Source: Candidatus Heimdallarchaeum endolithica (GTDB lineage Archaea; Asgardarchaeota; Heimdallarchaeia; Heimdallarchaeales; Heimdallarchaeaceae). Taken from it: a stretch of 64,000 nt of DNA. Below are positions 47,777 through 60,658 of this stretch, piece by piece; position 1 is the stretch's first letter, and every line of letters starts with the position of its first letter. The DNA is taken from contig CP084167.1 of NCBI GenBank assembly GCA_021513715.1, positions 1,600,001 through 1,664,000 of the forward strand, given 5' to 3'. The notes below the pieces were generated by a model. It saw nothing but the letters and a program-made list of their open reading frames with translations. It was not told where the DNA came from and ran no database searches. A program made the translations under genes and the position numbers.

Positions 47777-48757
47777 TTATTCAAAAGAGAAGTCTATTGA
47801 GTAAGTTTCAATTAAAGGGTTCGCCAGAATTTCATTACTTATTGTTTCTGTAACATCCCAAAGTTTTGACCCAGGAACAGATGTAAAACTAATAACAATG
47901 CTTTTTCCGATATTTACTTTTGATACCTGCTTGTAACCAAGACGTAGTAAAGAGCGAATGGTTATATCTCCTGCAGGATCTAAAACTGATACTTTTAAAT
48001 CGATAGTAACTCTAACTTTAGTCTTTAACTTTATTTTTGGAAGCTCTTTAATTTGTTCCAATCTAAAAGCTATATCGTTATAATGATCAACAACACTACC
48101 TAGATCTTTTCTATATCTATCTTTATCTTTTATTTCTCCAGAATTCTCTTCCCATAAGCGCATTGTATCAGCAGAAATCTCATCAGCTAAAATGAGTTTG
48201 CCATCCTTTGTTCTTCCAAATTCTAATTTAAAATCAACCAAAGTTAATCCTATTTTCTTGAATACTGCTACTAAAATATAGTTTACTGCTAATGTTACTG
48301 CTTTTATTATTATATTTTCTTTTTCATTAATCCAGCCTAAACTTATTGCTACTTCTTCTGTAACCAAGGGGTCATGAAGTTCATCATTTTTATAAAAAAG
48401 TTCAACAATTGGTTTTTCAAATGGGATCCCTTTCTCAACACCGTATCTTCTACAGAAGCTTCCTGCAGTAATATTTCTACAAACTGATTCAACAGGAATA
48501 ATTTCCACTTTTTTACAAATTAGTTCATTTTTTGATTCTTGTTTTAAATAATGTGTTTCAATTCCATAATGATTAAGAATTTCAAACAACAATTTAGATA
48601 TTTTACAATTAGCTTCTCCCTTTCCTTTTAATTCATCTACTTTTACACCATCAAAAGCAGAAATTGAATTTCTAAATACAATTTTAACTTTTTCACCACC
48701 AAGAGTAATAACATCTTTTGCTTTTCCAGAATACAACTTTTCCAACACCAACACCAT
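47777..48757 (-). CDS. purC-purS: SAICAR synthetase fused to PurS (PurC-PurS)
   Basis: LYSGKAK, DFKLEFG, LADEISADTMRLW and DKDRYR (PurC); C-terminal LKVSVLDPAG...IGKSI...ILANPLIETY (PurS). ATG 48757 is preferred over TTG 48772. Confidence 0.92.
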   Translation of the reverse strand: MVLVLEKLYSGKAKDVITLGGEKVKIVFRNSISAFDGVKVDELKGKGEANCKISKLLFEILNHYGIETHYLKQESKNELICKKVEIIPVESVCRNITAGSFCRRYGVEKGIPFEKPIVELFYKNDELHDPLVTEEVAISLGWINEKENIIIKAVTLAVNYILVAVFKKIGLTLVDFKLEFGRTKDGKLILADEISADTMRLWEENSGEIKDKDRYRKDLGSVVDHYNDIAFRLEQIKELPKIKLKTKVRVTIDLKVSVLDPAGDITIRSLLRLGYKQVSKVNIGKSIVISFTSVPGSKLWDVTETISNEILANPLIETYSIDFSFE

Positions 48758-48772
48758 TGCATTATTTTGCAA
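48757..48772. promoter_or_regulatory. Candidate purine-regulon operator TTGCA-N6-TGCAA (site 1, at the purC start)
   Basis: TTGCATTATTTTGCAA. Confidence 0.65.
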
Positions 48773-48907
48773 CCCGACAGTATGTCAGATTTGATACGAA
48801 AAAATTAGTGGATTAATAAATGTTGCGGAACACAATGATAATTCCGTAAATAAGACCGCAGACAATTAATAAAAACGAAAAAAACAGCAACAGTAAGAAA
48901 AAGAAAT

Positions 48908-48923
48908 TTGCAACGTAGTGCAA
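48908..48923. promoter_or_regulatory. Candidate operator TTGCA-N6-TGCAA (site 2, upstream of the regulator gene)
   Basis: TTGCAACGTAGTGCAA, just 5' of TATA-like CTATATAG. Confidence 0.65.
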
Positions 48924-48985
48924 AAAACTATATAGTTTCTTAAAAAAAATTTAACAATGAGTACATTTTTATTGTTTTGAGTGCA

Positions 48986-49765
48986 ATGAGTTCAGTGGAT
49001 AGTTACTTTGATGCTAAAGAGAAGCTTATGGTTCTTAATTTACTAAGAATGGTTTTCAAGAGGTTTACAACCCTAGAGGATCTAAAAACATATCTTGATA
49101 ACAAAGGTGTAGAAATTTCAATAGCAAACCTATCTAGATATATTAATGGCAAAGCTCTTCCAAAATCTAAGTTAAAAGACAAACTACTAAAAGTACTTGT
49201 AGGCAATAGAGAACTTGGTTTAGACATCAACTTACTTACGCATAAGCACATTGAGATTTGGCCTAGTGAGTATGGAATTGCTGTTAATAATGGACATCTA
49301 TTAAACGATTCAAAAGCTCTTAATGCTATATTATTCATGGCTATTTATAAGCAGTTCATTCCCACAGATGTTGACAAAGTAATTACAGCAGAAGTTGATG
49401 GTATTGTAATTGCTAGCACACTAGCTCACTTATTGAACATTGATTGTGTATATGCTAGAAAGAAAAAACCGACAGGATCATTTCGTTGTTTATCAGAAGA
49501 CATTCAATCAGCAACATCAAGTAGAATCGAAACTCTTTATTTTCCTGAGAAATATATTAGGAAAAACGAAAGAGTTATCATTATTGATGACATAATACGC
49601 TCTGGATCTACGCAAAAAGCTTTAGTTAATCTTGTCCGAAAAGCAGGAGGAATACCAGTAAAGGTTATTATTCTTATTGGCATTGGTTCACATTGGGAAA
49701 AAATTACAAAATTAAGCAATATCCCTTTTAAGGCTTTAACAGTTGTACCTCGTTCTGAATCTTAA
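48986..49765 (+). CDS. purR: HTH + type I PRTase domain regulator (PurR-like)
   Basis: N-terminal HTH (ISIANLSRYING..LP); PRTase VITAEVDGI, YARKK, PRPP loop IIDDIIRSGST; divergent from the pur operon. Confidence 0.8.
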   Translation: MSSVDSYFDAKEKLMVLNLLRMVFKRFTTLEDLKTYLDNKGVEISIANLSRYINGKALPKSKLKDKLLKVLVGNRELGLDINLLTHKHIEIWPSEYGIAVNNGHLLNDSKALNAILFMAIYKQFIPTDVDKVITAEVDGIVIASTLAHLLNIDCVYARKKKPTGSFRCLSEDIQSATSSRIETLYFPEKYIRKNERVIIIDDIIRSGSTQKALVNLVRKAGGIPVKVIILIGIGSHWEKITKLSNIPFKALTVVPRSES

Positions 49766-58514: not shown

Positions 58515-59282
58515 ATGATAGATGTGACGAAGTCTAGTGAAAAGAGTAAGCTGGAATTTAGTGATCTATTCTTTACAACCTTAGAACAGAGAATATCAGA
58601 TTTATCTAGTTTTGACTCATCACAAAAAAAAAGGAGTGAAAGAATTATTAGAGAACTTTCTCTTTTTTTAACTCAATTTTTTCCTTCAGAGATAGTTCAA
58701 AAAACAGCTTTAGAGCTTAGTTTAAAATTAGAAAAATTTTTTGAGCATGAAGTTGAACTACAAAGATTAACGAGAGTTAGAGTTACCCAATATTTTCTAA
58801 TATTATTAGACACAAATCTATCCCATTTAGGAGAAAAAATTACCCCAATACATCTTGAACTGCTAAAAAAACAAAAAATAGTGCCCGCAAAAAGCAAAAT
58901 ATGTAGCTATCTGGAAATAAAGAAAAAACAAAAAGAATTAGAAAGAAAAAAATTAATTCAAAAATCTAGTAAAGTAAAATTCAGTGAATTAATTAGAAAA
59001 CGTGTAAATAGTATTTTACAAGAATGTGAAATAGATAAAGTTTTTAGGAGAAGAGTAACGGATAAAATCAGAGAAAGAACTAATATTCTTCTAAATAAAG
59101 GAATAAAACCGCATATTGATGTTAATCAAGCAGCAATTGTTTTTATTTTATCAATATCTAGAGATCTTAAAGTGGATAGAAGAATTTCAAAAAGAATAAT
59201 GGAGAAATACTGTGATAAGTATAATTTAGATAAAAAAAAGATTAGAAGACAATATTATCAATTTAATAGAAGAATTTTATAA
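58515..59282 (+). CDS. Hypothetical basic helical protein (possible cyclin/TFB-like C-terminal repeat)
   Basis: Long K/R-rich ORF; C-terminal AAIVFILS...YNLDKKKIRRQY pattern. Confidence 0.65.
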   Translation: MIDVTKSSEKSKLEFSDLFFTTLEQRISDLSSFDSSQKKRSERIIRELSLFLTQFFPSEIVQKTALELSLKLEKFFEHEVELQRLTRVRVTQYFLILLDTNLSHLGEKITPIHLELLKKQKIVPAKSKICSYLEIKKKQKELERKKLIQKSSKVKFSELIRKRVNSILQECEIDKVFRRRVTDKIRERTNILLNKGIKPHIDVNQAAIVFILSISRDLKVDRRISKRIMEKYCDKYNLDKKKIRRQYYQFNRRIL

Positions 59283-59374
59283 GAATGATTTTTCTATTAA
59301 CAAAATTTTTAGTTATGAAAAGTACGATAACTTTCTATCAAAAATTTATTATAATTTTTATTGAACTGTAAATT

Positions 59375-60529
59375 ATGAATTCAAAAAAGAACGAACCACC
59401 TGAAGAAAAAGATATAGTTGTCAAACAGACTCTTACAAGTGGTCCTTTATTTAGTGAATTACTTGAAAGGTATAATAAAGAGAATATAACAATTGGTGTT
59501 ATAGGTTCTCATTCTGCTTTAGATGTTTTAGATGGAGCAAAAAGAGAAGGATTTAGAACCTTAGTTGTCTGTGAAAAAGGGAGAGAAGAGCCATATATTA
59601 GATTTAAAAGAATAATAGATGAAATTATTACTCTCGATCACTTTTCTGATATTTTTAATATTCAAGATGATTTAATTAATAAAAATACAATATTTATTCC
59701 TAATAGAAGTTTTACTGTTTATTGTGGGGCAAATAGAATAGAAAGAGGATTTAGAGTACCAATTTTTGGAAGCAGAAATTTATTAGGAGTGGAAGAAAGA
59801 GTAGGTCCACACAACTATTACCAGATTTTAGATCAAGCAACGATAAAATATCCACGAGTTTATAATTCTCCTGATGAGATTGATGGTCCTGTTATTGTAA
59901 AAATGCCTCATGCAAAACAAAGAGTTGAAAGAGGATTCTTTATTGCTAAAAATAAAGAAGATTTCGAAAAAGAGTTTGAAAAAAGGGTCATTGAGGGAAT
60001 TATAAAAATAGACGATTTAAAAGAAGCGTCCATAGAAGAGTTTGTTTCTGGTGTGCCATTCAACTTCAACTTTTTCTATTCACCACTATTTGATAGAGTA
60101 GAATTAATGGGTATTGACAGGAGATTTGTAACAGACTTAGATGGAATTGTTAGAATACCAGCAGAACAACAACTTAAGTTAGGATTAAAAGAAGAGATGA
60201 AAGAGATAGGTAATTTTGCTGTTACTCTCAGAGAATCAATGCTTAGATATGTTTTTCCTATGGGAGATTATTTTGTTGAAGCGACAAAGAAGCTCTATCC
60301 ACCAGGTATAATAGGTCCCTTTGCTCTACAAACAATGGTAACAAAGGATTATGAATTCAAAGTTTTTGATGTAAGTATGAGAATGGGAGGAGGAACAAAT
60401 TCATTCATGGGAATTGGTAGTAATTACTCCTCAATATACTGGGGAGAACCAGTTTCAGCTGGAAGAAGAGTTGCAATGGAAATTAAATTTGCAGTAAAAC
60501 AACAAAGATTAGCTTACATAGTTACTTAA
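59375..60529 (+). CDS. purP: PurP-family ATP-grasp protein (paralog 1)
   Basis: IGSHSALD, GAKREGF, FIPNRSF, ERGFF, PPGIIGPFALQ, GRRVAMEI. Confidence 0.9.
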   Translation: MNSKKNEPPEEKDIVVKQTLTSGPLFSELLERYNKENITIGVIGSHSALDVLDGAKREGFRTLVVCEKGREEPYIRFKRIIDEIITLDHFSDIFNIQDDLINKNTIFIPNRSFTVYCGANRIERGFRVPIFGSRNLLGVEERVGPHNYYQILDQATIKYPRVYNSPDEIDGPVIVKMPHAKQRVERGFFIAKNKEDFEKEFEKRVIEGIIKIDDLKEASIEEFVSGVPFNFNFFYSPLFDRVELMGIDRRFVTDLDGIVRIPAEQQLKLGLKEEMKEIGNFAVTLRESMLRYVFPMGDYFVEATKKLYPPGIIGPFALQTMVTKDYEFKVFDVSMRMGGGTNSFMGIGSNYSSIYWGEPVSAGRRVAMEIKFAVKQQRLAYIVT

Positions 60530-60545
60530 TTGCATAAAAATGCAA
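60530..60545. promoter_or_regulatory. Candidate operator TTGCA-N6-TGCAA (site 3)
   Basis: TTGCATAAAAATGCAA, between the purP paralogs. Confidence 0.55.
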
Positions 60546-60642
60546 GGACTGCTTTTTGCCATCAAATGGAAAAAGATGAATTGAATGCTCAACCCTTTTC
60601 CCACATTTTTATTTTTCATTCGACCCTGAGAGATATTTTTGT

Positions 60643-60658
60643 TTGCAAAATGTTGTAA
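60643..60658. promoter_or_regulatory. Candidate operator with 1 mismatch (site 4), upstream of purP2-guaA
   Basis: TTGCAAAATGTTGTAA. Confidence 0.45.

Follow-up and report, generated by a model that had tools for sequence, protein, structure and literature searches.

A putative purine regulon with its own palindromic operator beside a divergent HTH-phosphoribosyltransferase gene in Heimdallarchaeaceae

Palindromic boxes of the form TTGCA-N6-TGCAA in the genome of Candidatus Heimdallarchaeum endolithica (G000) are predicted from sequence to be the operators of a purine-nucleotide regulon of the Heimdallarchaeaceae. An adjacent protein that contains a helix-turn-helix (HTH) and a phosphoribosyltransferase (PRT) domain would bind these boxes as a sensor of PRPP or another ligand and repress the pur operon, a reading to which we assign a probability of about 0.7. 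The candidate regulator is most likely an archaeal counterpart of bacterial PurR that is labelled as an adenine salvage enzyme in databases. A preliminary description of this DNA had proposed a regulon of purine genes that has a palindromic operator of its own and is linked to the divergent gene for an HTH-PRT protein, and whole-genome and comparative tests support this proposal. The following features are located in the window, which is the whole stretch of 64 kb that was analyzed:

38905..48757, minus strand: purine operon purC-purS, purQ, purL, purE, purB-purM, purN, purF, purD, from Pfam and ORF coordinates
48757..48772, no strand: box 1, TTGCATTATTTTGCAA, in the purC leader 40 bp downstream of the TATA, putative proximal operator
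48813..48820, minus strand: putative TATA element of the purC operon, TTTATTAA, with an adjacent BRE-like GCAACA
48823..48849, no strand: imperfect inverted repeat TTGCGGAA-N11-TTCCGTAA, arms matching at 7 of 8 positions
48908..48923, no strand: box 2, TTGCAACGTAGTGCAA, upstream of both the regulator ATG (62 bp) and the purC TATA (87 bp)
48986..49765, plus strand: protein P0001 with a putative HTH_3-like and a PRT domain, candidate regulator
59375..60529, plus strand: purP1, FAICAR synthetase paralogue
60530..60545, no strand: box A, TTGCATAAAAATGCAA, directly after the purP1 stop codon
60643..60658, no strand: box B, TTGCAAAATGTTGTAA, 132 bp upstream of the purP2 ATG
60790..63309, plus strand: purP2-guaA (purP2 60790-61785, guaA 61801-63309), putative target operon of boxes A and B

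The three perfect boxes that had been described at 48757, 48908 and 60530 were found at exactly these positions, as was the copy with one mismatch at 60643, and the spacings of 151 and 113 bp within the two pairs are correct. The mononucleotide expectation agrees with the earlier rough estimate of 0.06 perfect copies per 64 kb. After dinucleotide shuffling, the window contained on average 0.16 perfect copies, and none of 100 shuffles reached three. A genome-wide search for the motif, which had been suggested as a check, found three perfect copies in 3.33 Mb, all of them at purine loci inside one 12-kb stretch. Base composition alone predicts 3.2 copies for the whole genome. The count is thus ordinary, yet the placement is not. 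Together with the one-mismatch box the perfect copies sit at the nine-gene pur operon, the regulator gene and purP2-guaA. The extended consensus of the boxes is T-TTGCA-nYRTWW-TGCAA-A. With a site matrix, box 2 was the top-scoring site genome-wide (24.0) and box B the second best (19.8). The sister genome G001 harbors four perfect copies, three of which are located at orthologous places.

Phylogenetic footprinting, also proposed at the outset, revealed that the box pair is kept in 16 related genomes, with the boxes 141-164 bp apart and regulators of 55-98% identity. In 15 related genomes the pair lies between purC and the regulator gene, at a spacing of 145-164 bp. Two matches scoring at least 16 are present in all 15 family genomes with purC, and 28 matches scoring at least 14 occur in 54 kb of purC loci, whereas control loci of the same relatives, 135 kb in total, contain none; as the matrix was trained only on purC/regulator sites, the box counts at these loci are partly circular. 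The orthologue of box 1 lies at -14 to -20 of purC in 15 of 15 family genomes, and its distance from the purC TATA is 39-41 bp in every one of them. G000 and G001 have the same half-sites but differ in four to five of the six spacer bases. The pair also remains beside the regulator gene in G011, where purC was not found. Conversely, neither of the two regulator-less genomes with available purC upstream DNA (G034, G036) has a box there, although this co-occurrence test covers few genomes that are incomplete and related to each other. In five family genomes (L016-L019, L022) the regulator is present without a box in its own upstream region, which indicates that autoregulation is not universal. 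The possibility that the boxes are chance AT-rich palindromes without function would agree with a genome count equal to the composition expectation. It is rejected by the comparative data and has next to no probability, as all perfect copies lie at purine loci, positions are kept over 15-16 genomes while the flanks diverge, and the control DNA contains no match.

The spacing of box 1 from the TATA element bears on its role. From the usual archaeal TATA-TSS distance we infer a purC transcription start site (TSS) near 48790. The motif TTAATAAA occurs at a fixed offset in 15 loci and lies inside a block conserved between G000 and G001. On the other side of the intergenic region, a conserved TATA-like block of the regulator promoter begins about 15 bp downstream of box 2 in both genomes. 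Box 1 had been described as touching the purC ATG. This is literally true (ATG at 48757-48755), but the same ATG is out of frame in G001, so that the real start may be an in-frame GTG/TTG at 48748/48745, behind GGTG. The inverted repeat at 48823-48849 likewise exists as reported, but its second arm is lost even in G001 and its first arm lies in the purC BRE/TATA block. It was rejected as a separate element and is probably not one. Looping by helical phasing was also considered; at 141-164 bp, the spacings group around 14.5 helical turns, and simple same-face looping is therefore not favored.

The purine operon comprises nine genes that are separated by gaps of at most 15 nt or overlap. At the second locus, 12 genomes carry a box in front of purP2, at -149 to -158 from its start (20-mer coordinates). 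Box B, which is identical in G001, is located about 90 bp upstream of a conserved TATA-like block of purP2. Box A is kept in G001, and a box overlaps the purP1 stop codon in four other genomes. The claim of paired boxes at both loci thus holds for the purC/regulator region, where the pair is kept as a pair, but wide conservation at purP2 is limited to the box about 150 bp before the start. No box was found upstream of purP1 in the G000 genome. The genome-wide matrix ranked the regulator/purC, purP2 and ribonucleotide reductase (RNR) sites first to third and guaB eleventh. Boxes at guaB were detected in 13 genomes and lie 71-82 bp before the start codon in the relatives. A strong RNR box is confined to the genus, and four other genomes have a weak identical site at -81. 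In G000, purA and prs have no box and pyrD-K-C-F have no site scoring at least 6 nearby, which indicates that this is not a global nucleotide regulon in that genome. A purine permease gene (PF00860) that could be a target was not found. The ORF at 58515-59282 was rejected as a missing IMP cyclohydrolase or other purine gene; it has no Pfam match, has paralogues and also occurs in genomes in which no purC or purP was found. A site at a PHI-like/MMPL gene (G000:C1:1268807) is kept only in the sister genome and is unproven as a target. In relatives, the regulator, purP1 and purP2 form one block with the regulator as first gene, which indicates that the purC/regulator and purP loci were once contiguous.

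Two of the box positions allow another interpretation. Box 1 lies in the predicted purC 5' leader, which folds at -13.2 kcal/mol (z -2.5), and box A directly follows a stop codon. The palindromes might hence be RNA hairpins in leaders or after stop codons that act in attenuation or processing, perhaps through protein-RNA binding as in PyrR, an RNA binder with a PRT fold. However, taken by themselves the box hairpins have little stability (-3.8 to -4.8 kcal/mol, z -1.3 to -1.7), and the guaB sites of relatives contain uncompensated G-to-C/T changes in one half-site. In L003 a TATA-like TTTTATATAA lies between box 2 and the start codon 33 nt away, which places that box upstream of the promoter. 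Moreover, no Rfam family matches and the protein carries a DNA-type HTH, making a function in RNA very improbable. A riboswitch or structured leader was rejected as well, given an empty Rfam E-value scan of 48000-62000 and the weakness of the box hairpins.

The coordinates reported for the regulator gene (48986-49765) are correct, and the gene is divergent from or adjoins pur genes in all box-bearing family genomes. P0001 contains a Pfam Pribosyltran domain at residues 119-245 with an APRT/PurR-like fold and an intact PRPP loop, VIIIDDIIRSGST. It is a predicted divergent member of the archaeal HTH_3-like and PRT family PRK08558 (NF006328; 'adenine phosphoribosyltransferase' with N-terminal HTH), to which it is homologous over its full length, HTH included. 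Residues 13-255 align to model positions 7-235 of 238, and hhalign against a canonical member above the cut-off gave 99.9% at 34% identity. P0001 differs from this family in its score of 150.8 bits, below the cut-off of 184, and in an insertion of about 14 residues after the HTH. Pfam did not detect HTH_3 in P0001 itself. Sub-threshold HTH_3 matches of 17.7-22.7 bits (cut-off 23) were obtained for four of six canonical PRK08558 members, and their matching residues align to the P0001 segment SRYINGKALP; an Atlas lead from P0001 to HTH_3 clusters scored 0.86. Within the regulator family the HTH contains an invariant SRY..G...P and a nearly invariant putative recognition helix, SIANLSRYINGKALPKSKLK. 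An alignment-based AF2 model (pLDDT 92.8), used instead of a single-sequence AlphaFold model with a pLDDT of 39, shows an N-terminal domain of four helices without a wing.

In the PDB, the family profile best matches the PRT domain of Bacillus subtilis PurR (1P4A/1O57, residues 127-233, E 1.3e-16). Against the PurR model TIGR01743, P0001 scores 58 bits for residues 123-234, the PRT part only (cut-off 258.7), and PuR_N (PF09182) was not matched by Pfam with either the whole protein or residues 1-95. Scores of 43-68 bits against all APRT/XPRT equivalog models stay below the cut-offs of 125-243. Databases nevertheless name the family adenine or xanthine phosphoribosyltransferase, and five genomes have the regulator gene without a box upstream of it. 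Both facts could mean that the boxes are real purine operators bound by another transcription factor, with the HTH-PRT protein being a salvage enzyme or having some other role. This is quite unlikely, as the gene adjoins the boxes in 16 genomes, the boxes stay in G011 despite the apparent lack of purC, the HTH is conserved, the PRT domain most resembles that of a known purine repressor, and no second regulator gene is conserved at the locus. The regulator protein could still retain PRT activity.

In G000 the proposed regulon would comprise the nine-gene de novo operon, the regulator gene, purP2-guaA and, elsewhere in the genome, guaB; it probably also covers the class II RNR. Most likely the boxes are bound by a dimer of the neighboring HTH_3-like and PRT protein, in which each XRE-type HTH would read one TTGCA half-site. 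Its PurR-like PRT domain with a PRPP/5-phosphoribosyl loop is predicted to respond to a ligand, PRPP or a related phosphoribosyl compound or purine nucleotide, by altering DNA affinity. Box 1 would occupy roughly +17 to +32 from the predicted TSS, fixed 40 bp downstream of the TATA, and a protein bound at this position would repress by interfering with the recruitment of RNA polymerase or with early elongation. PRPP may relieve repression at the pur operon, in analogy to PurR of B. subtilis. The distal boxes upstream of TATA (box 2, box B, guaB box) could provide autoregulation and co-control of the remaining steps. Box 1 lies further downstream than many archaeal repressor sites, an observation against repression.

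The sign of control may be mixed, since archaeal activators often bind at positions such as those of the distal boxes. With operator and protein unchanged, the protein might mainly be a ligand-dependent activator, as PurR is in Lactococcus lactis, acting from the boxes upstream of TATA, with box 1 as an accessory or feedback site. Positions upstream of the BRE are typical of archaeal activators, and such placement is seen for box 2 (about 15 bp before the TATA-like block), box B (about 90 bp) and the guaB boxes of relatives. However, the strict distance of box 1 downstream of the purC TATA fits repression rather than activation, and the TATA assignments are inferred in AT-rich DNA. Predominant activation is a real if smaller possibility.

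Like PurR of Firmicutes (TIGR01743; PDB 1O57, 1P4A, 7RMW), the preferred repressor candidate combines a predicted DNA-binding domain with a homologous PRT domain of non-catalytic type that contains a PRPP loop. PurR acts on its own gene as well as on the de novo pur operon, with more than one box in each control region, and the Heimdallarchaeaceae sites are putatively alike in this. In contrast, the N-terminal domain is helical and probably XRE/HTH_3-like instead of the PuR_N winged helix, the putative operator is a 16-18-bp palindrome instead of PurBoxes, and the promoters are of the archaeal TATA/BRE type. The suggested analogy to PurR thus applies to the sensor domain but not to the DNA-binding domain, and P0001 is not a PurR orthologue. 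PyrR of Bacillus also reuses the PRT fold as a sensor in the control of nucleotide synthesis, as is putatively the case here. It binds RNA and lacks an HTH, whereas the archaeal protein has one and its sites include putatively untranscribed promoter DNA. GfcR of Haloferax volcanii is an archaeal transcription factor with a short N-terminal HTH and a PRT domain that senses phosphorylated metabolites (PMC10838023), an arrangement putatively shared by P0001. However, GfcR resembles PyrE, serves as an activator of sugar catabolism and, by prediction, does not bind PRPP (PMC10838023), and P0001 scores only 22.1 bits on its model NF045507 (cut-off 300).

The PRK08558 family is widespread in the same phylum and also occurs in H. 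volcanii and Sulfolobus acidocaldarius; no paper was found that assigns it a regulatory function or binding site. The family as a whole, which bears the adenine phosphoribosyltransferase label in several archaeal phyla, could be the general archaeal PRPP-sensing regulator of nucleotide synthesis with two modes in Heimdall archaea, a roadblock 40 bp downstream of TATA and distal sites that precede TATA boxes by about 90 bp. The box spacing of about 150 bp would then reflect promoter DNA that is wrapped or bridged, possibly with archaeal histones, rather than looped. This combined reading is unlikely.

Very little is known about archaeal control of purine synthesis, and nothing was found in the literature for Asgard archaea, a lineage that bears on the origin of eukaryotes. 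The prediction is precise and cheap to test, as it names one protein, one site of 16-18 bp and a few target promoters. It would correct a database label, as proteins of a family annotated as salvage enzyme probably act as transcription factors. Here a PRT sensor is fused to what is probably an XRE-type DNA-binding domain, and in Firmicutes PurR to a PuR_N winged helix, for what is proposed to be the same regulatory job. Relatives in which purC and purP were not detected still have the regulator and the guaB box, which provides a natural experiment on regulon shrinkage.

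Mismatch-free copies of the palindrome TTGCA-N6-TGCAA (box) were located in the window at 48757, 48908 and 60530 (boxes 1, 2 and A), together with a one-mismatch copy at 60643 (box B), just as listed in the preliminary description, which had proposed paired operators of a PRPP-sensing purine regulon. The genes concerned are the following.

48757 down to 38905, minus strand: tight nine-gene pur operon with purC-purS (fused), purQ, purL, purE, purB-purM (fused), purN, purF and purD
48986-49765, plus strand: candidate regulator, 259 residues, Pribosyltran domain, divergent from the pur operon
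59375-60529: purP1, twelve kb from the purC/regulator locus
60790-61785: purP2, at the same distance
61801-63309: guaA, likewise

Because the pur operon, purP1, purP2 and guaA encode almost the entire route to IMP and GMP, only few operators would be needed. Dinucleotide shuffles of the window contained a mean of 0.16 perfect copies, and none of 100 shuffles contained three. In the whole genome, a closed contig of 3.33 Mb with 30.8% G+C, about 3.2 perfect copies are predicted from base composition and three were found, all of them in the window. The number of perfect copies is ordinary, but their confinement to 12 kb of purine-gene intergenic DNA is far from chance. Of the four perfect copies in the sister genome, three are at orthologous positions.

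The regulator locus was obtained from 40 relatives for phylogenetic footprinting. A box pair, 141-164 bp apart, recurs upstream of the regulator in 16 genomes, whose regulators are 55-98% identical. On the purC side, two position weight matrix matches of score 16 or more are present in 15/15 family genomes having purC. More distant families of the order retain TTGCA-N6-TGCAA or TTACA-N6-TGTAA upstream of purC, and the box is absent from the purC upstream DNA of G034 and G036, a small sample of incomplete genomes in which no regulator homologue was seen. In the alignment the sites form a longer palindrome of 18 bp, T-TTGCA-nYRTWW-TGCAA-A. Between the window's genome and its sister the half-sites are identical and the spacer differs at four or five of its six bases; such invariant half-sites with a variable spacer are the signature of a half-site-contacting protein. 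The palindromic form implies a dimeric binder, most likely a dimer of the candidate regulator.

The single further conserved element between the boxes, TTAATAAA, reads TTTATTAA on the purC strand and is a putative TATA box with an adjoining BRE-like stretch. Its distance to box 1 is 39-41 bp in 15/15 loci. With the usual archaeal distance between TATA box and transcription start site, box 1 would occupy roughly positions +17 to +32 of the pur transcript. Its fixed position downstream of the TATA box speaks for repression of this operon. In the genus, the regulator promoter has a conserved TATA-like block about 15 bp downstream of box 2, and the corresponding block of purP2 lies about 90 bp downstream of box B; both co-operative repression and activation would be compatible with these positions. 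The boxes are consistently about 150 bp apart, a distance that does not correspond to whole helical turns; DNA looping, which had been put forward as a possibility, is not regarded as supported. The inferred purC leader (48740-48792, minus strand) folds at -13.2 kcal/mol (z -2.5), its outer stem joining the vicinity of the inferred start site to the start-codon region and enclosing the box hairpin.

A position weight matrix trained on the purC/regulator sites alone was run genome-wide. The two best sites are box 2 and box B. The third site, C1:3042362, is paired with a weaker one at a distance of 132 bp and is located 157 bp upstream of a class II ribonucleotide reductase, a 2495-aa frame with several intein and LAGLIDADG insertions (locus L031, C1:3042519-3050006); this box is strong within the genus only. 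Rank 11 is a site at C1:874448, 138 bp ahead of guaB. The guaB box is shared by 13 family genomes, in most cases between -71 and -82. The purC loci yielded 28 matches of score 14 or more in 54 kb, a number that is partly circular, as training sites are included, whereas 135 kb of unrelated control loci from the same relatives yielded none. The guaB, purP2 and ribonucleotide reductase matches are not circular with respect to training. That the boxes act as RNA hairpins instead is unlikely: the box hairpins are weak, changes at the guaB sites are not compensated, promoters lie downstream of some boxes, and Rfam has no matching family.

A one-mismatch box that is perfect in the sister genome and conserved in the genus only occurs at C1:1268807 (about 908-923 of locus L033), flanked by a SIS gene resembling 6-phospho-3-hexuloisomerase and by an MMPL transporter; a tie to pentose-phosphate/PRPP supply is conceivable, though unproven. 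No boxes were found at purA, prs or pyrD-K-C-F of this genome. Two weak box-like sites at 6711-6782 (scores 13.8 and 12.0, 52 bp apart), beside an apparent minus-strand tRNA gene (about 6782-6905), probably occur by chance. In five relatives, guaB is matched in two parts (residues 2-305 and 303-478) by one uninterrupted frame of 935-941 aa, for example G005:C64:1708-4482 and G017:C47:22958-25738. This layout suggests that an intein-like insert of about 450 aa interrupts their IMP dehydrogenase.

At purP2, a box is found 149-158 bp ahead of the start in 12 genomes, being intergenic in some and overlapping the purP1 stop codon in four. Of the two purP2 boxes, box B is thus the one conserved widely; perfect box A is common to the window's genome and its sister only. 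The stretch from box A to box B shows little conservation between these two genomes, and the 130 nt from box B to the purP2 ATG (60659-60789) are about 90% identical. The latter, for which Rfam has no match, may comprise a promoter and a conserved leader. In eight relatives purC is followed by divergent regulator-purP1-purP2 on a single contig with short gaps. In the window's genome (49766-59374) and its sister, about 9.6 kb of unrelated genes, including thioredoxin-like, PPIase, acetyl-CoA synthetase, NosD-like and urocanase genes, are inserted between regulator and purP1. The purC/regulator and purP1-purP2 loci were thus formerly contiguous.

Neither purC nor purP was found in eight family genomes (G004, G007, G008, G010, G011, G012, G019 and G020; 86-90% complete), all of which contain the regulator, here neighboured by the pyrimidine genes pyrF, pyrC and pyrK. 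The box pair still precedes the regulator in G011, and the guaB box is retained in G004, G010 and G012 and weakly in G020. These genomes resemble those of purine auxotrophs in which the regulon has shrunk. As boxes stay with the regulator gene where purC is gone, the site seems tied to the regulator protein and not to purC alone; that another protein binds the boxes is improbable.

In the phosphoribosyltransferase (PRT) part of the candidate regulator, the loop has the canonical form VIIIDDIIRSGST, and an ARxxKxxG stretch is conserved. In an alignment-based AlphaFold model (pLDDT 92.8) the N-terminal domain consists of four helices and is accompanied by a PRT fold, which Foldseek groups with APRTs, XPRT and Bacillus subtilis PurR. 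The N-terminal segment SIANLSRYINGKALPKSKLK is nearly invariant in the family and was not recognised by Pfam in the window's protein. The regulator aligns over its full length with PRK08558 (hhalign 99.9%), canonical members of which show a slightly sub-threshold HTH_3 at the position aligned to this segment, and an Atlas lead agrees with the HTH_3 reading. Hence it is best read as a divergent member of an archaeal HTH_3-like plus PRT family, not a PuR_N-type PurR. The proposed analogy to PurR holds for the PRT domain, whose best solved relative in a search with the family profile is that of PurR (E 1.3e-16), but not for the PuR_N type; TIGR01743 scored 58 bits against a cut-off of 258.7. PRPP is a natural guess for the ligand, because the loop is intact and PurR provides a precedent. 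PRK08558 is frequent in the phylum, with matches also in H. volcanii and S. acidocaldarius. Homologues from Heimdallarchaeaceae/Heimdallarchaeota are named 'phosphoribosyltransferase family protein', 'adenine' or 'xanthine phosphoribosyltransferase'.

Full-text literature searches turned up no account of a purine regulator of the PRT type in archaea. The nearest paper describes GfcR of Haloferax, likewise an HTH-PRT protein, but PyrE-like and an activator of sugar catabolism (PMC10838023). New here are the genome-wide uniqueness of the perfect sites, the fixed distance from TATA to box 1, the former contiguity of both loci, the guaB and ribonucleotide reductase sites, and the persistence of the regulator in relatives without detected purC and purP.

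Neither PurO (PF07826) nor PurH (PF01808) was found in the whole genome despite two PurP paralogues, leaving the IMP cyclohydrolase step without an assigned gene. Two fusions occur in the pur operon: PurB-PurM (42170-44500, minus strand) combines Lyase_1/ADSL_C with AIRS/AIRS_C, and PurC-PurS (47777-48757, minus strand) combines SAICAR_synt with PurS and has full-length matches in relatives.
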